DNA of 64,000 nt, from positions 4,544,001-4,608,000 of the forward strand of contig CBDCNP010000002.1 of NCBI GenBank assembly GCA_965219415.1. Reading direction: 5' to 3'. This stretch comes from Candidatus Marinacidobacterales bacterium. GTDB taxonomy: Bacteria > Acidobacteriota > Vicinamibacteria > Marinacidobacterales > DATDRI01. The first letter of the stretch is position 1, and each line of letters starts with the position of its first letter. Positions 19,743 through 63,302 of the stretch are shown piece by piece. The notes beneath the pieces are model-generated. The model made no database searches, was not told the DNA's origin, and was given only the letters and a program-made list of their open reading frames with translations. The translations under genes and the position numbers were made by a program.

Positions 19743-21632
19743 ATGGCGGCGATATTCGATAAGCATGCGATACCAACTCACGTGTTCAACATTCCTGATT
19801 TAGACTTCCACGAAGATTTGTTTGCCGATCGCCTCGGCAGCCTTTGGTTCAGGCTAGGGGTTTGGACTATCAAATCTCAACGCAATGATCGAGGCGTTGA
19901 AGACGTGATTGAACGGCAAAGCGTCATGCTTACACCTGGACGCTTCTCTGAAATCTACGACAAACTCGAGTCTGTTGGCAATGTGTTCCACAATCTCGGC
20001 GAGCCCGTAGAATCGGTACAACGCGATGGGGACTATAAGAAGTACGCCTATGCCCCGTTTCATCGCTTCGAACTGAGGTTCACTTCGATAGTATGCGAGC
20101 CGCTGGTATCCGTTCGTATCCTGAATTCGGGCATAGAGCTTTTCATCAACCCTGACTTAGAGTTGTTTTTTAAGCTAGAGGAAAAGACGGTCGGGTGCGG
20201 CCTCTGGTGGGACCCACGACGTGGGGTCGAGGCTCTTCGGCGCCGTGTGATTGCGAACAGCAACCTGCAAATCGTTGAGATTCGAGTTGACTACCTGCGG
20301 AAATACTTGCAGGCACGTCAGGTATCATTGCTGGTTGGGCATTATCGCCATCTTCATCTTTTTGATCCCTCACCGAGTACCCTTGAAGCATTTGTGAAGG
20401 AGGACATCGTGCGAGGCTCTCCCGATCAGGGGGCTAAGGCGATCTTCCAAAACTGGGGACTCCGGCAACATAACCCAGAGGAGCAATACCTACAGAGAAG
20501 ACTACATTTGTGGTTTGAAATCAAACCTCCCGAGTCCGACATCGATGATCCATGGGCTGACGAACCATCATTCGATCCCTACGAATTTACTCTACCCACT
20601 CAGGGTGGCCCAGTTGCCCCGGGTCGTTGGAAGCACTTTCGACAAGCCGAAGGACGAGAGTTCGATGGTGGAGCCTGTGACTTCATGGATCGCGTCTACT
20701 TCAGACAGGAAGTGTTATCGAAGTATGAAGGGGCTTCCGGGTTTGACGTTTTGGACAATGGCTCGGTGTCCTGTCGGCACTATTGGGGGCTAGTTCGCAG
20801 TACGTCGCGGATCGGTAACGAACTGCTCGCAACTGCTATTGGCGATTTTGCAGAAGGAGTTCCTTTTGAAGAGTGGCCGCACTGGAAGCAGCACGCCATA
20901 GAACCACCGAGCGTGGAAACCATAAACGCACTTTACGAAGAGCAGACAATACCACATGCAGTAAATTCTCTAGTCGGTGAACTTGATGCATTGAATGCTA
21001 CATTCGCGAGTTTCTCTGATGTGATGAAGGCTGAGATTTCAGTTCCGCTTTGGGGCGGTTCACTCAAAAGTCTGGCTGGCCGCCAGCTCAAGTGGGTCTA
21101 CTCCACGACCGCCGATGACGATGAGTTTCTGAAAAGAGCGACACTTATGTCGACACTGGTCGTTGACGGGCTGGCTGCAAAGTCGCTACGAGAGCTCCTT
21201 CAGGCTTGGGATGAAGGCCTCCACCTCAATGACGGTGGTCAATCTCTGCGTTCCCGGAAACTCCTGGAACGAGTTACGTTCGTTGCTGTGCTGATCGAGG
21301 ATTTCCAGCCGAACAGCGCCGAGATCCCCATGCTAGTAAAGCAGGCAGAAGGTAAAGCCAACAACGCAGGCGACCCTGATCTACAGACCGAACTCAAGAG
21401 TTCGTATCAAAAAACCCGAGAGGATTTGTCTCCGCTGGCTTTCCTCTATGACTTGCGAACACACGGTGGATTTGCTCACTCCCCCAATAGGGAAAAGGTA
21501 GCGACCGCAGCGGCAAAACTCCGTCTTCCTAAAAGGAATTGGCATCGGACTGACTATCTTCAACTTCTCGGACTCGTTGCCGGAAGCGTTAAGCAAGTTA
21601 GTGAGCACCTAGAAACTGCCGCAAAGATGTGA
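19743..21632 (+). CDS. Large hypothetical protein with C-terminal HEPN-like motif
   Basis: Long open frame, lower GC than flanks; LAFLYDLRTHGGFAH near the C-terminus. Confidence 0.7.
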   Translation: MAAIFDKHAIPTHVFNIPDLDFHEDLFADRLGSLWFRLGVWTIKSQRNDRGVEDVIERQSVMLTPGRFSEIYDKLESVGNVFHNLGEPVESVQRDGDYKKYAYAPFHRFELRFTSIVCEPLVSVRILNSGIELFINPDLELFFKLEEKTVGCGLWWDPRRGVEALRRRVIANSNLQIVEIRVDYLRKYLQARQVSLLVGHYRHLHLFDPSPSTLEAFVKEDIVRGSPDQGAKAIFQNWGLRQHNPEEQYLQRRLHLWFEIKPPESDIDDPWADEPSFDPYEFTLPTQGGPVAPGRWKHFRQAEGREFDGGACDFMDRVYFRQEVLSKYEGASGFDVLDNGSVSCRHYWGLVRSTSRIGNELLATAIGDFAEGVPFEEWPHWKQHAIEPPSVETINALYEEQTIPHAVNSLVGELDALNATFASFSDVMKAEISVPLWGGSLKSLAGRQLKWVYSTTADDDEFLKRATLMSTLVVDGLAAKSLRELLQAWDEGLHLNDGGQSLRSRKLLERVTFVAVLIEDFQPNSAEIPMLVKQAEGKANNAGDPDLQTELKSSYQKTREDLSPLAFLYDLRTHGGFAHSPNREKVATAAAKLRLPKRNWHRTDYLQLLGLVAGSVKQVSEHLETAAKM

Positions 21633-21654
21633 ACCACCCCGGGTGGCCGGAGAA

Positions 21655-21763
21655 GGTCACCCATGAAGACGGACGCCTGTTCGTGTATAAGGAACTCTTT
21701 CAGGATTTTCTTATACATACCTGGTCGCTTGGCCGGAACATCGTAGGACACCATTACGAACAT
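21655..21763 (-). pseudogene. cas2: Cas2 (non-I-E type) N-terminal fragment
   Basis: MFVMVSYDVPAKR...KILKEFLIHEQASVFMGDL matches the Cas2 YD...Q.SVF.G pattern. Confidence 0.75.
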
Positions 21764-22534
21764 GGAGTTCGGAGAGAAGTCGCTCCATCATGCGCTTAGG
21801 GAATACGTCGTCTACCATCACCATGAGAGGAATCATCAAGGCAAGGAGAATTTGCTGCTGATCCCAGCCAGCGACCAGTTGCATCAGTCCGGGCGCAAGG
21901 TGCGCTCCGGGTGCTTCCGCCATCAAGTGTTGCTACGCGGCTGCGGGCAGTGGTTCAGGTGCGGAAGAGACCAGGTTGCGCGCCCCAGTGAGCAGGAAAA
22001 CCTCGATCCGCGACCACAAAGGAATCGTCGTCGCCAAGAAGATGTCTCGAAAGGTGAGCCCGTCTGGTCAAAATACTCGAACGCCCAGCGGGTCAGCAGT
22101 TTGCACCTTCGCAAAGGCCGCTTGAATCCGCCATCGCTGTCGGATACGTATTCCAGTTCAGCGGAAGGAGTTGCGATGGACTGGAAGACCATGCTGAGCT
22201 ACATCCCAGGATCCGTGGATGCGGAGTTGCTCCTGCGCAACGAGTATCTTGTGGCCGAGAATCGAGTTCTTCGAAATCAGCTCCAGGGTCGCTTGCACCT
22301 GACCGATGGCGAACGGCGGTCTCTGGCCGAGCTCGGAAAGCGTCTGGGTAAGCAAGCCCTTGATAAGATCGCGAGTATCGTGAATCCCGACACGATCCTA
22401 GGTTGGCACCGGAGGCTTGTCGCGAAGAAGTTCGACAGCTCCGAGAACCCGTGAGGTCAAAATACTCATACAGCTTCCCGTTGGAAAGGTGCAAACTGCT
22501 GACCCGCTGGGCGTTCGAGTATTTTGACCAGACG
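21764..22534. mobile_element. Stack of IS remnants: rve C-terminal fragment, IS1 right end (21910-22058), rve IS left part (22059-22449), ~85-bp mini-element (22449-22534)
   Basis: ERNHQGKEN; match to the IS1 3' end at 61407-61535; MDWKTMLSY..LLLRNEYLVAENR; GGTCAAAATACTC inverted termini. Confidence 0.8.
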
Positions 22535-28924: not shown

Positions 28925-29068
28925 GGTGCTTCCGCCATCAAGTGATGGGATGGACTCCTCCGCTGACATAGACGGCATCGATGTGCCAAAGTCAGTCGAA
29001 AGAACGCATCGAAAAAGGAGGAGTCCGAATGAAAGATGCGACGATCGCTGTGGGTCTTGCAAAGAACG
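28925..29068 (+). mobile_element. IS1-type terminus interrupted by an IS110 left end, itself truncated
   Basis: Same junction as 59962-60105 (GGTGCTTCCGCCATCAAGTG|ATGG..TGGACTCCTC). Confidence 0.85.
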
Positions 29069-30354
29069 TGTCCATCATCATTATTAATCCGGGACTGGAC
29101 TCTAGGGCCCGGACCGCCCTCGAGCACATGCTGGAGAGCGTGGTCAGCGCGCGAGGGAAGGTGCTGAGGAGGAACTTCTCGGCGACCAGCCGAGTAACGC
29201 GAGCGACCAAGCTGACTCAGGCTGCCTCTCGCCACTCGTATCGATGGTGCAGTCCACCGACTCGCGGCAGTGCGACTACTTTCGCCGTAGGAGACGGTCG
29301 GTGCGTGACCGTTCTCAAGCTCGGTGTGTCCTTGTTCAGCCCCAAGTGGCAACGGTCCTCATGATAGTAGCTGATGTAAGCTCGCACGAGCCGGATGAGA
29401 TGACATGCACCGAGAACCACGACGTGCTCAAGGAGCTCGCGACGGCAGCTGCCGACCCACCGCTCCGCGGTTCCGTTTTGCCATGGGCTGCGAAACGAAG
29501 TGCGAACGGGTTTTGTGCCCGTTGCCTTGATGAACTCGATGACCGCAGCGTTAAAGATGAAGTCGCGATCGAAGATGAGATATCTCGGAGCGGTGTCGTA
29601 GGGAAACGCCTCGCGTAGTTGCTGAATAACCCAAGCAGACGTCGGGTGGAACGTGGCGTTGAAGTGAACGATGTGCCGGCGACCGTGCTCGATGACGAAG
29701 AAGCCGTACAGCAGCCGGAGCGACGCGGTGGGCACGGTGAACAGATCCATGGCGGCGATATCGTCTTTATGGTTGCGCAAGAAAGCCATCCATCGTTTCA
29801 GCTGGTCGGGCTCCGCGGGACGCCGCGGCAGGTATCGCGACACCGTGCTCTCGGAGATGATGAAACCGAGCTTGGTGAGCTCAGCATGGATGCGTGGCGC
29901 CCCCCAGCCGTCTTGCGCCATCGTGCGGACGAGGCGACGAATCTCGGCATCAATCCGAGGCCGACCGGGATGGCGGCGCTGCGAGATATTTGCCCAGTAC
30001 CGTCGGAATCGGTCGCGATGCCAACGGGCCACGGTGTCCGCGTGGACGATGAGCAGGCGGCTCGCCCACACGGGCCACGAACCTCGAAGGGCAACCCAGA
30101 AAGCCCGTTCCGTGTCTTCGAGCGGTGGGCGTGGGCGCTCTTTCTTCAGCGCCGTCACTTGCTGCCGCAAAGCGACGTTCTCCAACACCAGGTCGGCGCG
30201 GCGCCGACACATCGCCCGAATGGCACGGACGCCAAGTGAGACGAGGAAGACAACAACGTTGAGCATAGCGGCGGAGTTTCGCCGTCTTCGGCCCGGAATT
30301 CAAGCGGAGCGTAAGTCCTTGATTTCGTGGGCGGAGCAGTTTTGACGATGCACA
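29069..30354 (-). mobile_element. rve IS, copy 4 (transposase 29217-30266)
   Basis: Same termini and ORF as copy 1. Confidence 0.9.
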
Positions 30355-58101: not shown

Positions 58102-58923
58102 ATGAGGAAGAGCGACGAGGAAAAGTACCTGAAGTTCTGGAGCCAGTTCGGCAAGGCCTTGAAAGAAGGGGTTACGGAGGATCTCGAGAATAAAGACAAG
58201 CTCGTCGAACTCCTGCTCTTTGCTTCTTCCAATGACGCCGAGAAGCTGGTGTCCCTGGCAGATTACGTGTCGCGAATGAAGGAGGGGCAGGAGGCAATTT
58301 ACTATCTGAGCGGTGAGTCCCGCGCTGCTATCGACAGTTCGCCTCACCTCGAGGCATTCCGGGCCCGAGACATCGAGGTCCTGTACCTCACCGATCCTGT
58401 CGACGAGTTCCTCGTCCAAGTCCTTGCCGACTACAAGGAGAAGAAGCTCCGGTCGGCGGCGAAGGGCGAAGTGGACCTCGGTTCAGAGGAAGAGCGTCAA
58501 GAGAAGAAGAGGGAGCTAGACTCTAAAGCGAAGAATTTTGCGGCTATGATGGAGAGAATTCAAAAGGTGCTCGACGACCGAGTCAAGGAAGTGCGCCTCT
58601 CGACCCGTCTCACGGATTCGCCGGCCTGCCTCGTGGGCGGCGAGGAGGATGTGAGCCCTCGTCTCGAGAAACTCCTGCGCCAGCAGGGCGACGTGCCTCC
58701 CCAGCGACGTATCCTCGAGCTGAATCCGTCGCACGACGTCGTGATCGCGCTCAAGGCGCGGTCCGACGTCAACGAGGACAGTGAAAGCGTTCCCGAATAC
58801 GCCGAGCTACTTTACGGCTACGCCCTACTGGCGGAGGGCGCCGATATTTCGGACCCGGCGAAGCTCGCCGCCCGCTTTGCGGAGCTGATGCGTCGCGGCC
58901 TTGGAATTGGCGGGGGCGGTTGA
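58102..58923 (+). pseudogene. htpG: HtpG (Hsp90) C-terminal third, 5' truncated
   Basis: FGKALKEGV, YVSRMKEGQEAIYY, SPHLE, RLTDSPACLV, ILELNPSH. Confidence 0.88.
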
Positions 58924-59321
58924 GCTCGTGAAGGCATTGTCAAGTTTTCCACGGCCTGACGGCCACCCCGAATGCATGAAACGCGGTTAGTCGCTGGAGG
59001 TGGCACCGGCTCAACACGACGCCTGAGGGAGCTCGGTTTTGACGTCACTCTCACACCTCTTGACAACGTTACACCCTGAGTTTCTTATTAGTTAAGCAGA
59101 ATCGGGCTGTCATCGTACGGAAGCCTCGGGGCCGCCGTGTTCGGAGGACTGCCCGGACAGATAGGTCGCGCAATCATCGGCGGCATTGGTCCCGTCTGGT
59201 CAAAATACTCAAACGCCCAGTGGGTCAGCAGTTTGCACCTCACGGCTTGGCGGGTTGCTAAGTTTCTATCATCGGGAAGCCGCATGAGGGTGGGCTTGAT
59301 CCGGTTTCGTAGACGGTTTAG

Positions 59322-59961
59322 TTAAGCTGGCGAAGTCCTCATCCGTCGTTCAAACTCGGCCGGACTGACCTGGCCGAGGGTCGAGTGTCGTCGTCTCTGG
59401 TTGTAGAATACCTCGATGAAGTCGAAGAGGGCCATCTTGGCCTCGCCGCAACTTAGGAAATGCTCCCCAAGCTCGTGCTTGACCGTGGAGAACCAGCTCT
59501 CGATGACGGCGTTGTCATAGCAGTTGCCCCGTCGGCTCATGCTCCCGGTCATGCCATGCGTCTCAAGGAGACGTTGGTAGTCTTTGCTGGCATACGGACT
59601 GCCCTGATCGGAGTGATGCAAGAGCCCCGCGGCCGGTTGGCGACGTTTCAGTGCCATCCCGCAACGCCTTGATAACCAGGTGACGGTCGTTAATAGCACT
59701 TACGGCCCACCCAACGAGGAATCGCGAGTAGAGGTCGAGGAGCGCCGCGAGATAAAGCTTCCCGCCGCTGCCGATCACGAACTCGGTCGTGTCCCCGACC
59801 CACCGTTGGTTCGGCGCATCGGCGACGAAGTCTTGCCCGAGCACATTGGCCGCGACGGGCTGGCCATGACCGCTTACCGTCGCGCGCTTGAAGCGTTTTG
59901 CGTACTCGAGCAATGAGGCCTTCTGCCTGTTTCAACCGAATCACCCGCTTCCGACTCACTC
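59322..59961 (-). pseudogene. IS3-family orfB remnant, frameshifted
   Basis: PNQRWVGDTTEF, HHSDQGS, SRRGNCYDNAVIESWF. Confidence 0.8.
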
Positions 59962-60062
59962 GGTGCTTCCGCCATCAAGTGATGGAATGGACTCCTCCAC
60001 TGACATAGACGGCATCGATGTGCCAAAGTCAGTCGAATACGCATCGAAAAGGAGGAGTCCGA

Positions 60063-61094
60063 ATGAAAGATACAACGATCGCTGTGGATCTTGCAAAGAA
60101 CGTCTTCGAGATTGCCATCTCGGGAGAAGCGGGGAAGGTGTCCAAGCGACTCCGTGTGAGTCGACCCAAATTGGTGTCGTTCTTTGCCAAACAGAGCGCT
60201 GCCACCGTGCTTCTCGAAGCCTGCGGCTCGGCTCACTTCTGGGCAAGGACGTTCCGAAGGTTGGGACACGACGTCGTCCTGCTCCCACCTCACCTCGTGA
60301 GGCCGTATCGACGCGGGAGCAAGAACGACCGCGCCGACACGAAGGCGTTGCTCGAGGCCTACAGGAACGAGGAGCTTCTTCCCGTACCCATCAAGTCCGT
60401 GCACCAGCACACCCTCGCCGCGCTCCATCGCCTGCGCTCAGGATGGCTCTCCACACGGACCGCACGCATCAATGCCGTACGCGGGCTCCTGCGCGAACTC
60501 GGATTCATCATCCCAAAGGGCGCTCACTTCGTCGTGCCCGCCCTCTTCGAACTCGTCGAAGACGCTGATTCTGATTTGCCCGACGTGCTCCGTTCGCATC
60601 TCCGTGATGCCTGCTCCGAGATTCGAGAACTCAAGGACAAGTGCGCTAGCATCGAGCACGAGCTCAAGGCGCTCACCAAGCAGCTTCCTGAAGTCCAACG
60701 ACTTCTCGCCATTCCCGGCATCGGACTTCTGACCGCGACCGCCATCGTGGGCTTCGTCGGCGATCTTCGCCGCTTCCCATCGGGGCGCCGCTTCTCGAGC
60801 TACCTCGGCCTAGTTCCCAAGGAAAACTCCAGTGGCGACATTCGCCGCCTCGGACGCATCACCAAGCGTGGCGACTCCTACCTCCGTATGCTCCTCACCC
60901 AGGGCGGGCGCGCCGTGCTCCGCGCGGCGAACGTCAGCAAGAGCCCGCCCGACAAGCTCCGCGCCTGGGCTCGGAAGGTCCACCGCTCGCGGGGACACAA
61001 CAAGGCCGTGATTGCTGTCGCCAACAAACTCGCCCGGATCGTCTGGGCCGTCTCCACCCGCGAGAGTGAATTCCAGTCGCCGGTGGCCGCTTAG
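60063..61094 (+). CDS. IS110 DEDD recombinase/transposase
   Basis: AVDLAKNVF, LEAC, KNDRAD, IPGIG, YLGLVPKENSSG, ANKLARIVW. Confidence 0.93.
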   Translation: MKDTTIAVDLAKNVFEIAISGEAGKVSKRLRVSRPKLVSFFAKQSAATVLLEACGSAHFWARTFRRLGHDVVLLPPHLVRPYRRGSKNDRADTKALLEAYRNEELLPVPIKSVHQHTLAALHRLRSGWLSTRTARINAVRGLLRELGFIIPKGAHFVVPALFELVEDADSDLPDVLRSHLRDACSEIRELKDKCASIEHELKALTKQLPEVQRLLAIPGIGLLTATAIVGFVGDLRRFPSGRRFSSYLGLVPKENSSGDIRRLGRITKRGDSYLRMLLTQGGRAVLRAANVSKSPPDKLRAWARKVHRSRGHNKAVIAVANKLARIVWAVSTRESEFQSPVAA

Positions 61095-61159
61095 ACTTAG
61101 AGGCTCCACTTTCGTGTTTTCCTTTTTCCCTTCCAAAAGAGGCTGCGACGATACCCATC

Positions 61160-61325
61160 CAACTGATGGCGTACCGGTCGGACCGGCGCGGGGTCAAGCC
61201 AATAGCAACACTGGCCCTAAGAGGCCGTTCAAAGTGATTGGCTCCTCGCGCGCGGATTTTCCATCATGGCCCGGAGCACCCAAGACGCTCCTCACTGAGG
61301 CCGAAGATACGTTTGCAGTCTGACC
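61160..61325 (+). ncRNA. Predicted bridge/seek RNA of the IS110 element (boundaries approximate)
   Basis: Loop 1: GCCAAT..ATTGGC stem enclosing TAGCAACACT and AAGTG (target match). Loop 2: TTCCATCAT and AGATA (donor-junction match). Confidence 0.75.
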
Positions 61326-61409
61326 CACCCGTCACGACGCGATGGATGCGCAGCTTCGATGGAAGATTTATTAAGAAAGGGGCTTGACTAGAGGAGTCCA
61401 GATATGTTG

Positions 61410-62477
61410 CTACGCGGCTGCGGGCAGTGGTACAGGTGCGGAAGAGACCGGGTTGCGCGCCCTACTGAGCACGAAAACCTCGATCCGCGACCACAAAGGA
61501 ATCGTCGTCGCCAAGAAGATGTCTCGAAAGGTGAGCCGTCGCGTGGTCAGACCAGCCTGCATAGCCGGAGTTCGGATCTCACGTCCGAACTTCAGAGTTC
61601 CGTGCGGTCGGACGAAGTTGTAATAGCAACGGAGCAACTCCAGGTGCTCATCGAGCCTCTCCGTCGAGCGAGCGTGGGAAAGCGTTCGTCTCGAAAGGTA
61701 TGCCGAGCTTTGCCGGATGGTCAGATTCAACCGCTCGATGAACGACGTGTTCAATGTCGAAGAGTCCTCGGAGTTATTCAGCGCGTCTTCGAATCGCCAC
61801 GCGGCTCCGTGCAGCGCTCTGCGTTCGACCTTGATGATGCGATCGTTCCTGCGCGTTTTTAGGACCTGGCCGTAGAGACACGCTGGACCGAAGAAGCGAC
61901 GGATGACCTTCTGGTAGAATTCGAATCCATCCGTGACGATCAAGGGAAGACGCTCGAAATTCATCCGCTTCGAAAGGTCGCGAAACAGAGCGTGAGTGTT
62001 CCGGTAGCTTCGCCTTCCCGTCACCGTCGATGGCCAGAGCCGAGACCAGACTTCGATTGTAACGAAGACCCAACTCGGTGTCTTCTTGTTGCCCGCGAAC
62101 GTGCGAATCTCGTCGGCTTGAAGCTCTTCGGCAGCGAAGCCAGCGATCCTCCTGTGATTGAATCGACGACACATTTGGGCTGCCTTCTCGAGCCAGCGGG
62201 CGACGGTGTTCCGGGCAATCCCTTTGATCCGGGAAATCGAGGAAATGCTGACACCCTCGACTCTGAGAGCGATGACCCCATCGAAAGTAGCTCTTCGATG
62301 TTGGAGACGGTAGTAGGGCGTGCCTTTCGTCGAGGAGAACGTCTTTCCGCACTCGCCGCACCGGTATCGACGGCGTTTCCCGGACCTGGTTCGGTAGAAT
62401 CCGTGGCGAACGATGTTTCCGGAACTGACTTTGCCCTGCAACGGACATGCGAGATTGAGACATCTGCGATTCTTCAC
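61410..62477 (-). CDS. IS1-family transposase (zinc ribbon + HTH + DDE)
   Basis: CLNLAC..RYRCGECGKTF, QADEI, IVTDG, NTSFIERLNLTIR. Confidence 0.82.
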   Translation of the reverse strand: MKNRRCLNLACPLQGKVSSGNIVRHGFYRTRSGKRRRYRCGECGKTFSSTKGTPYYRLQHRRATFDGVIALRVEGVSISSISRIKGIARNTVARWLEKAAQMCRRFNHRRIAGFAAEELQADEIRTFAGNKKTPSWVFVTIEVWSRLWPSTVTGRRSYRNTHALFRDLSKRMNFERLPLIVTDGFEFYQKVIRRFFGPACLYGQVLKTRRNDRIIKVERRALHGAAWRFEDALNNSEDSSTLNTSFIERLNLTIRQSSAYLSRRTLSHARSTERLDEHLELLRCYYNFVRPHGTLKFGREIRTPAMQAGLTTRRLTFRDIFLATTIPLWSRIEVFVLSRARNPVSSAPVPLPAAA

Positions 62478-62586
62478 TTTGGCTCGGCCCTGACGATGAG
62501 AGAACTGTGTCTTCGGAATTCTGGTCCAAACTCTAGCACGCAGACCGGTTAGGGGCTGGCCGCCAACACTTAATTGCGGAAGCACC

Positions 62587-63302
62587 CTTTCTTGCGCAAC
62601 CATAAAGACGATATCGCCGCCATGGATCTGTTCACCGTGCCCACCGCGTCGCTCCGGCTGCTGTACGGCTTCTTCGTCATCGAGCACGGCCGTCGGCACA
62701 TCGTTCACTTCAACGCCACGTTCCACCCGACGTCTGCTTGGGTTATTCAGCAACTGCGTGAGGCGTTTCCCTACGACACCGCTCCGAAATATCTCATCTT
62801 CGATCGCGACTTCATCTTTAGCGCTGCGGTCATCGAGTTCATCAAAGCAACGGGCACAAAACCCGTTCGCACTTCGTTTCGCAGCCCATGGCAAAACGGA
62901 ACCGCGGAGCGGTGGGTCGGCAGCTGCCGTCGCGAGCTCCTTGAGCACGTCGTGGTTCTCGGCGCATGTCATCTCATCCGGCTCGTGCGAGCTTACATCA
63001 GCTACTATCACGAGGACCGTTGCCACTTGGGGCTGAACAAGGACACACCGAGCTTGAGAGCGGTCACGCACCGACCGTCTCCTACGGCGAAAGTCGTCGC
63101 ACTGCCGCGAGTCGGTGGATTGCACCATCGATACGAGTGGCGAGAGGCAGCCTGAGTCAGCTTGGTCGCTCGCGTTACTCGGCTGGTCGCCGAGAAGTTC
63201 GTCCTCAACACTTTCCCTCGCGCGCTGACCACGCTCTCCAGCATGTGCTCAAGGGCGGTCCGGGCCTAGAGTCCAGTCCCGGACAAATAATGATGATGGA
63301 CA
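62587..63302 (+). mobile_element. rve IS copy 9, 3' half
   Basis: Matches 2646-3361; 5' half replaced by the IS1 element. Confidence 0.87.

Follow-up and report, generated by a model that had tools for sequence, protein, structure and literature searches.

An IS1111-type insertion sequence in the terminal repeat of an IS1-like element, and a predicted guide RNA that matches its target

We analysed a stretch of 64,000 nucleotides (the window) from a Candidatus Marinacidobacterales bacterium (assembly GCA_965219415.1, contig CBDCNP010000002.1, positions 4,544,001 to 4,608,000), in which an insertion sequence (IS) of 1425 bp interrupts a terminal inverted repeat (TIR) of a second, IS1-like element. 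The insert occupies 59982-61406, with one TG common to target and element, and lies 20 bp inside the right TIR of a 1200-bp host element (59962-62586). These limits could be set because an uninterrupted copy of the site at 21910-21938 shows both sides joined, reading GGTGCTTCCGCCATCAAGTG and then TTGCTACGC. At the left junction, CCATCAAGTG runs up to 59981 and ATGGAATGG starts at 59982 (in a longer read, GGTGCTTCCGCCATCAAGTG at 59962-59981 followed by ATGGAATGGACTCCTCC). At the right junction, CCAGATATG runs up to 61406 and TTGCTACGC starts at 61407 (in a longer read, GAGGAGTCCAGATATG followed by TTGCTACGCGG). An earlier note on this DNA had described an IS110/IS1111 element that splits the host right TIR before TTGCTA with a shared TG, and had proposed that its bridge RNA is programmed for this target. 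On re-reading 59000-62400 and 21000-22200, all of its coordinates were exact, and the junctions and the empty site agree with the split as described. The features of the locus are as follows.

59962-59981, plus strand: left target, the outer 20 bp of the host right TIR (GGTGCTTCCGCCATCAAGTG), with the shared TG core at 59980-59981; known from the uninterrupted copy and from 33/33 genomic left junctions, at most 1-2 changes allowed
59982-61406, plus strand: insertion sequence assigned to the IS1111 group (IS110 family), 1425 bp counting one TG at the right end
59982-59998, plus strand: left end, made up of the terminal extension ATGGAAT and the sub-terminal inverted repeat GGACTCCTCC (59989-59998); ISPa25 begins with an identical 17 nt
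First 6 nt of the left end, plus strand: right-donor sequence, ATGGAA
60063-61094, plus strand: transposase gene, 343 amino acids (aa), from the open reading frame (ORF), Pfam and NCBIfam
61095-61406, plus strand: 3' non-coding region, 312 nt, with a predicted bridge/seek RNA inside (folding)
61186-61253, plus strand: predicted target-binding module with basal stem, stem AGCCAAU/AUUGGCU, internal loop and hairpin GGCC-CUAAGA-GGCC (minimum free energy (MFE), centroid and consensus structures)
61203-61212, plus strand: putative right target guide (top-strand complement) TAGCAACACT, complement of AG-TG-TTGCTA (cross-lineage matrix; occupancy follows TTGCTA)
61230-61236, plus strand: putative left target guide strand (bottom-strand match) CAAAGTG, of which AAGTG at 61232-61236 is exact (at this position, L132, L069 and L047 each carry letters that read their own left flank)
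61259-61267, plus strand: putative right donor guide (left end) TTCCATCAT, complement of A-TG-ATGGAA (sequence, shuffles)
61305-61311, plus strand: putative left donor guide (right end) AGATACG, against the element end AGATATG, one core mismatch
61384-61406, plus strand: right end, with the -35-like TTGACT at 61384-61389, the sub-terminal repeat GAGGAGTCC(A) at 61391-61400 and the terminal AGATATG
61407-62586, minus strand: rest of the host element, with the inner TIR TTGCTACGC (right target), the minus-strand transposase gene and the left TIR to 62586

The transposase of the insert has a DEDD/RuvC-like N-terminal domain (PF01548, E 6.6e-12, residues 7-146) and a C-terminal Transposase_20 domain (PF02371, E 5.9e-25, residues 212-290), and it scored 306 bits, against a cut-off of 140, with the NCBIfam model NF033542, 'IS110 family RNA-guided transposase'. 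Its motif GLVPKENSSG fits the IS1111-group pattern GL-P----S(t)G, and its 343 aa fall within the range of 330-350 aa. The closest named transposases in a plasmid collection were those of ISPa25, ISShdy1, IS4321 and IS5075, with identities of 46.5%, 40%, 34% and 33.5%, respectively, in near full-length alignments; those to ISPa25, IS4321 and IS5075 span 96-99% of the window protein. The sub-terminal inverted repeats (TGGACTCCTC at 59988-59997 and GAGGAGTCCA at 61391-61400) match perfectly over 10 bp, or over 12 bp with one mismatch; lengths of 7-17 bp (PMC11208160) and usually 11-13 bp (PMC11187229) are given for the IS1111 group (here and below, excerpts of these two articles and of PMC12288879 are the source). 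The extensions beyond the repeats are 6-7 nt on the left and 4-5 nt plus the 2-nt TG on the right, depending on how repeat and core are delimited, and the IS1111 criterion is 7/3 bp. The non-coding DNA measures 81 nt on the 5' side of the transposase gene (59982-60062) versus 312 nt on its 3' side. Judged by its domains, sub-terminal repeats, longer 3' non-coding region, protein motif and nearest named transposases, the element is a member of the IS110 family, IS1111 group, as the earlier note had said.

The host element carries an inverted copy of the same repeat at its other end. Its transposase ORF lies on the minus strand and its stop codon TAG (61410-61412) is located just inside the insertion point. 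The IS1 label given to it earlier held in part: the family model NF033558 (E 1.4e-24), the IS1/IS1595 zinc domain (weak, E 6.7e-4) and plasmid genes labelled 'IS1 family transposase' (identity of 28-31% across 80-94% of the length) all match, but the NF033558 score of 87 bits is below the curated cut-off of 100, and Pfam DDE_Tnp_IS1 is below its own. The host is thus a probable, distant IS1-family element. Counting with up to 3 mismatches, the genome holds 481 copies of the outer 20-mer in five interior classes, with TIRs of at least 23 bp. Class A and class E ends pair as the 1200-bp IS (37 pairs, median length 1200, including 59962..62586), and class B and class E ends pair as a 244-bp miniature element (MITE; 24 pairs). 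Class D alone accounts for 179 ends, and IS1-like ends in the window lie at 21910, 57490, 59962 and 62586. IS1 makes target-site duplications of 8-9 bp. At none of the 61 A-E and B-E host pairs, occupied or not, was a flanking direct repeat of more than 3 bp found, and the order of insertion events is therefore unreadable.

The genome of the window (8.05 Mb) contains 30 complete and 3 truncated copies of the inserted element. All copies had been expected in the same host end, a check set beforehand, and all 33 left junctions were indeed found at the same TIR position after CCATCAAGTG, in constant orientation to the repeat. On the right side, 29 of 31 junctions lie before TTGCTA and one before TTGGCG; the remaining one leads into the interior of another copy. 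The 481 ends are alike in the left side and the TTG, and the next three letters differ; these discriminating letters are the ones read by the TAGCAA part of the proposed guide. Ends with TTGCTA were occupied in 28/115 cases. In comparison, occupancy was 0/33 for TTGGTA, 0/185 for TTGGTG, 1/91 for TTGGCG and 2/363 for all non-TTGCTA ends together (Fisher p against TTGCTA of 6e-4, 2e-13, 3e-7 and 8e-17, respectively; indicative values only, because the copies are not fully independent observations). In genomes of relatives, the same guide lineage also uses sites outside any TIR, for example ATCAAGTG followed by TTGCTG and TTCAAGTG followed by TTGCTT (in longer reads, GTATCAAGTG then TTGCTGAG, and TGTTTCAAGTG then TTGCTTGA). 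Since these sites share only the short target, recognition spans about 11 nt and not the whole repeat.

The 312-nt region folds with an MFE of -117.6 kcal/mol (z -3.95), and 0/100 shuffles folded as well. Both the MFE and the centroid structures hold the stem AGCCAAU/AUUGGCU, the internal loop and the GGCC hairpin. The earlier note had singled out the stem GCCAAT (61198-61203)/ATTGGC (61237-61242), the inner hairpin GGCC (61213-61216)/GGCC (61223-61226) and a 10-nt complement of the target, with folding as a check; the positions proved exact and folding recovered the module. The 10 nt at 61203-61212 (TAGCAACACT) are the exact reverse complement of the target AGTGTTGCTA. The left target TCAAGTG would fit its putative guide only via a 1-nt bulge, and the core UG adjoins the closing stem. 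The two target guides overlap on AGTG, with the top-strand complement (10 nt) located 5' of the bottom-strand match (5 nt). In the second module, UUCCAUCAU on the 5' side and AGAUACG on the 3' side adjoin a short stem. The claim that this second loop matches both element ends held for the left-end guide, since TTCCATCAT is the reverse complement of the junction between right and left end, A-TG-ATGGAA, core included; for the right end the AGATA is followed by CG, a mismatch in the core.

When one genome of each species was scanned, the element turned up in metagenome-assembled genomes (MAGs) titled Candidatus Marinacidobacterales (89-98% aa identity), together with more distant relatives. In L047, L132/L138 (62% aa identity), L069 (46%) and ISPa25 (46.5%) the scaffold is kept and the loop letters follow each element's own flanks and ends, as the earlier note's bridge RNA would have it. 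A consensus fold of six lineages (window, L048, L047, L132, L069 and L145) has a basal stem of 7 bp, a stem of 7 bp and an inner hairpin of 4 bp, and 5 of its 26 pairs keep pairing through two-sided changes. L145 (55% aa identity) entered this fold only, its scaffold being recognisable and its ends too decayed for boundaries to be set. In the cross-lineage matrix, the complement of the 5' loop strand matched the element's own right junction over 8, 10, 9 and 9 nt for window, L047, L132 and L069, respectively, versus 3-5 nt off the diagonal. For the left flank, 5, 5, 7 and 7 of 9 positions were identical on the diagonal versus 1-5 off it. The donor guides for the left end likewise read UUCCAU for ATGGAA (window and ISPa25), UCCCAU for ATGGGA (L132) and UCUCAU for ATGAGA (L069); in L132 and L069 their core positions are mismatched. 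In 4/5 lineages the guide for the right end is exact (AGATATG in a lineage of about 92% identity, AGATACG in L132, ATACACG in L069 and ATATACG in ISPa25).

Individual lineages illustrate this pattern. L047 (~91% DNA identity) keeps the stems and has the target loop strands AUAACAAUCGU and UUUGCAGCG; it is inserted between CTCCAGTG and ATTGTTATCC, where GATTGTTATC corresponds over 10 nt to the complement of the 5' strand and CAG.G to the 3' strand. L132/L138 are two identical copies whose right junction is reproduced over 9 nt by the complement of the 5' strand, ACGCAGTTG. Their 3' strand, GUCCGGACG, agrees with the left flank at 7/9 positions and with uninterrupted paralogous hairpin sites in the genome G041 at 8/9 and 9/9, and the donor guides are UCCCAU (left end ATGGGA) and AGAUACG (exact right end). 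In L069, from a Steroidobacteraceae MAG, the segments match the left flank GTCTTTG (7 nt), the right junction ACGATCCTT (9 nt), the left end ATGAGA and the right end ATACACG. ISPa25 has the same layout, a left end identical over 17 nt and the donor guide pair UUCCAU/ATGGAA. In the ~92% lineage, target guides and target are unchanged and the right-end guide AGAUAUG corresponds exactly to its own end. Taken together, these comparisons of sequence give strong support to a predicted bridge/seek RNA.

We consider it highly probable that this is an active or recently active IS1111-group element whose DEDD transposase works with an RNA from its own 3' non-coding region. The proposal builds on the anatomy of the element, the constancy of site and orientation, an occupancy that depends on the letters that the guide reads, and the co-variation of the loops in relatives. 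The RNA would contain two internal-loop modules, one for the target (61197-61243) and one for the donor (about 61255-61315). In the donor module, the 5' strand would pair with the left end (TG-ATGGAA) and the 3' strand would match the right end (AGATA-YG). The RNA would pair with the two strands of the target and of the excised circle, in which the right end is joined to the left end, and so bring them together; strands would then be exchanged by the transposase at the TG core. The programmed target would then be the inner right TIR of the distant IS1-family element and of its 244-bp miniature, with about 115 good sites in this genome. Transcription, binding by the transposase, the circular intermediate and strand exchange are inferred by analogy with experimentally studied members, namely ISEc11, ISKpn4, ISPst6 and ISPa11 (PMC11187229) and IS621 (PMC11208160).

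Several points weigh against this reading. The RNA itself is predicted from sequence, and a consensus scan of the integrated form found no sigma-70-type promoter. In 20000 mononucleotide shuffles, the 286-nt non-coding region reached a 10-nt match with a 24-nt target window 130 times, and the 9-nt donor match was reached 403 times; the 5-nt matches AAGTG and AGATA are weak alone. Each match alone is only moderately unlikely, and the weight rests on the placement in unpaired loops and on the relatives. The left-target guide of the window lineage is short, with 5 nt in a row or 7 if a bulge is allowed, and its right-end guide has the core CG where the element has TG. The donor module has a weak closing stem, and RNAalifold pairs 3 nt of the two donor guides together; the expectation of unpaired guide segments thus held for both strands of the target loop in the consensus fold and failed for these 3 nt. 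A Rfam 15 scan of 59800-61600 (E <= 10) gave no match on the non-coding region and four chance-level matches, all inside the coding region. In the ~92% lineage, the left end has changed to ATGGGA and the donor guide has changed at another position (UUCCGU), which is no clean compensation because pairing survives only through two wobble pairs. The core register in the 5' loop shifts by one position between lineages, and one of the 30 complete copies sits at TTGGCG, with 2 mismatches to the guide. Finally, the boundaries of L047 and L069 were taken from end homology in single copies with no empty site; for L047, none was found in the window's genome or at any relative locus examined, so its target is known from one insertion only.

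Two other explanations of the site preference were weighed. If the protein alone read the repeat, either as the transposase or as a complex with a host transposase bound to the TIR, the loop matches would be incidental. The target is after all the protein-binding site of another transposase, the RNA is a predicted one, and the improbability of each match taken singly is moderate (chance reached them in 130 and 403 of 20000 shuffles). However, ends with the same outer 23 bp that differ at the positions read by the guide go unused (0/185, 0/33 and 1/91), relatives use non-TIR sites with only about 11 nt in common, relatives with other targets carry matching letters in the same loops, and the RNA mechanism is experimentally established for IS1111 members (PMC11187229); recognition by protein only therefore seems extremely unlikely. 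The second explanation replaces some 30 guided insertions by a single insertion into one host IS or MITE, after which the IS1-family transposase would have moved the composite. The copies of the element all share 99% identity or more, a composite end still exists because the outer 20 bp of the TIR have not been lost, and host (96%) and passenger (92-98%) may travel together between genomes, both far exceeding the chromosomal gene (67-69%). Yet the same haplotypes occur in four host classes (1200-bp IS, 244-bp MITE, C and E), the host flanks vary between copies whose inserts are identical, occupancy is alike in class A (15/76) and class B (11/36), and in relatives the element also lies outside any TIR. 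We regard carriage in a composite as a very unlikely origin of the copies.

The distribution of the copies is in line with guided insertion. Both the full-length IS and the MITE carry each of the two main haplotypes of the element, classes C and E carry one of the two as well, and nearly identical inserts are flanked by host sequence that varies among the occupied copies. Hence, these copies point to a recent burst of separate insertions and not to amplification of one composite. The copy comparison also showed, in part, occupied host copies scattered among unoccupied ones. Two complete copies are 1425 bp long (the window copy and C3:4669541-4670965), 25 measure 1445 bp, and the remaining three measure 1439, 1446 and 1465 bp. 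The length of 1445 bp is due to tandem duplication of a 20-bp unit with the -35-like TTGACT (window 61373-61392), and the burst lineage is the one carrying this duplication. Across the order, the element was found in 7/55 genomes: that of the window, none of 7 other genomes of its family, and 6/19 genomes of another family. Identity to G049, G053 and G054 is 92-98% for the element and 96% for the host IS, versus 67-69% for the neighbouring chromosomal gene at 58113-58901, which indicates that element and host IS moved horizontally. The host IS is also present at 96-98% identity in two same-genus genomes, where no IS110-type transposase was found at E <= 1e-30. At 28945-29069 of the window, a 122-bp left-end fragment of the ~92-93% lineage (ATGGGATGG) lies at the same position of the repeat, which shows that an older relative of the element had entered this genome as well.

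What the insertion does to its host is a separate matter. The earlier note had seen in the guided element a hyperparasite that immobilises its hosts, that is, the split right TIR would disable host transposition and act as a brake on IS1-family expansion. Disabling is a reasonable expectation because the repeat is split 20 bp from its tip, the insert setting the outer 20 bp 1.4 kb from the inner part, and loss of host mobility is plausible. About a quarter of the matching ends are occupied, transcription of the insert would be convergent with the host transposase gene, and the host spreads on its own, as the two same-genus genomes with no IS110-type transposase detected at that threshold attest. 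On the other hand, the host transposase ORF stays open up to its stop at 61410-61412, only one end is affected since the other is almost never hit, 361/363 non-TTGCTA ends are empty and beyond the reach of the guide, and the order of events is unreadable from hosts that lack target-site duplications. A functional brake is thus possible and, on balance, doubtful. A repeated, dispensable and horizontally mobile landing site, that is, a safe site or a means of hitch-hiking, fits the choice of target equally well and is more economical. It is less likely still that the element is a natural RNA-guided anti-transposon, which would disable the IS1-family element and its MITEs with a guide selected to track the commonest 'TTGCTA' end; were this true, the 7/55 genomes of the order with the element would curb an IS1/MITE expansion that goes unchecked elsewhere.

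A number of further observations were made on the element and its relatives. A third copy of the sub-terminal motif (GGAGGAGTCC, 60051-60060) overlaps the ribosome-binding site, 3 nt before the start codon, and is complementary to the left-end repeat at 59989-59998, an arrangement also present in ISPa25; a hairpin between the two could hide the ribosome-binding site in read-through transcripts. A promoter formed at the circle junction from TTGACT (61384-61389) and a weak -10 in the left end was considered and is given little weight, as an inference only, because the spacing is not conserved in L132. Contigs of four RNA-labelled runs cover parts of the transposase gene and 61250-61411, none covers 61196-61249, and such contigs show neither expression nor its absence. 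No circle joint from 61406 to 59982 was present in these contigs, which cannot exclude a circle; a joint of the right end at 61404 to 60872 was present in contigs of two of the runs. The right ends of many relatives likewise join target-like internal positions of the element, e.g. GCCGTG followed by ATTGCTG. In L031, L039, L040, L044, L045 and L056, complete copies are followed by 1-3 tandem partial 3' copies (from ~850-1110 to the end), which are extra copies of the RNA-coding region and recall the separate ssr9 copies of ISPpu9 (PMC12288879).

With regard to the core, L132/L138, L069 and ISPa25 (L157) read TG at the left and CG at the right junction, and CG is also found in the paralogous sites of G041 that have no insert; in the window lineage, junctions and empty site read TG and the right-end guide reads CG. 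Recombination between a TG core in the donor and a CG core in the target could explain this asymmetry. In this IS1111 subgroup the two cores may differ at the first base, with a core requirement looser than that of IS621. The 62% relative (L132/L138/L159/L162, G041) targets the loop side of a hairpin repeat with 8-bp arms. In G041 this repeat recurs within a region that encodes an HNH-like ORF and exists in ~80%-similar copies; relative to this region, the two element copies are oppositely oriented. As for the surroundings of the host IS, it sits in a frameshifted remnant of an IS3-type (rve domain) transposase (59322-59960, minus strand), its right side adjoins an IS481/rve-type ORF at 62574-63155, and several host copies in the genome adjoin another repeat ending in GGCCCTTTTGAAATAGACC.

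The behaviour of the element has precedents. Muller, Lauf and Herrmann (Mol Genet Genomics 265:1004) reportedly described in 2001 the specific integration of IS1383 into the inverted repeats of IS1384 in Pseudomonas putida H. In both cases an IS110-family element targets the inverted repeat of another insertion sequence; that study predates the guide RNA, and the host phylum differs, as does the host IS, IS1384 belonging to a family other than IS1. Similarly, Partridge and Hall are said to have shown in 2003 that IS4321 and IS5075 target the terminal repeats of the Tn21 family. These two share with the window element the IS1111 group, sub-terminal repeats and a single position and orientation in the terminal repeat of another transposon. 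However, their transposases are 33.5-34% identical to that of the window, their target is a Tn3-family repeat and not an IS1-family one, and they occur in plasmids of Proteobacteria, whereas the window element is found in marine Acidobacteriota-type genomes. The novelty implied by the earlier note was therefore not borne out: terminal-repeat targeting by the IS110 family was already in print, as was the seekRNA/bridge RNA mechanism, shown in 2024 (PMC11187229, PMC11208160). A literature search that was not exhaustive, with ISfinder and supplementary tables outside its scope, turned up neither this element nor any IS1-family TIR described as a target, and the supplementary target logos or bridge RNA tables of the two 2024 articles may list close relatives. 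Since behaviour and mechanism have both been described, the element opens no new class.

The closest known systems are those of the IS1111 group itself. ISPa25, ISKpn4 and ISPst6 target attC; a seekRNA has been demonstrated in ISKpn4 and ISPst6, and one is predicted in ISPa25 (PMC11187229). ISPa25 has the nearest named transposase (46.5%), a left end identical over 17 nt, the same 3' scaffold and guides at homologous places, but it targets an integron attC instead of a TIR, and its junctions read TG on the left and CG on the right versus TG at both in the window lineage. ISEc11 and ISXne4 represent a natural re-direction of the seekRNA (PMC11187229). The window element and L047 (~91% DNA identity) resemble that pair in that they keep the stems, change both loop strands and sit in matching, different sequences; they differ from it in that L047 is a single copy without an empty site, with a target taken from one insertion. 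In the bridge RNA of IS621, a left and a right guide lie in each of two internal loops, the core takes part in the pairings, and the donor and target modules are independent of each other (PMC11208160). The window element may share this two-loop layout, core included; in IS621 the RNA lies in the left end and the guide order is reversed, whereas the predicted RNA of the window element lies in the right end, and its sub-terminal repeats are longer. In IS1111 seekRNAs the RNA is located in the right end and the top-strand complement lies 5' of the bottom-strand match (PMC11187229), which is the guide order of the window element. Among these systems, it adds a well-resolved natural case of RNA-guided IS110/IS1111 recombinases with an unusually clean natural readout of specificity: 481 near-identical candidate sites in one genome serve as an in-vivo readout for the right-target guide, and five lineages with different targets and ends give a readable rule for placing the four guide segments in this IS1111 subgroup, a rule that could help to choose or reprogramme compact recombinases of non-proteobacterial source.

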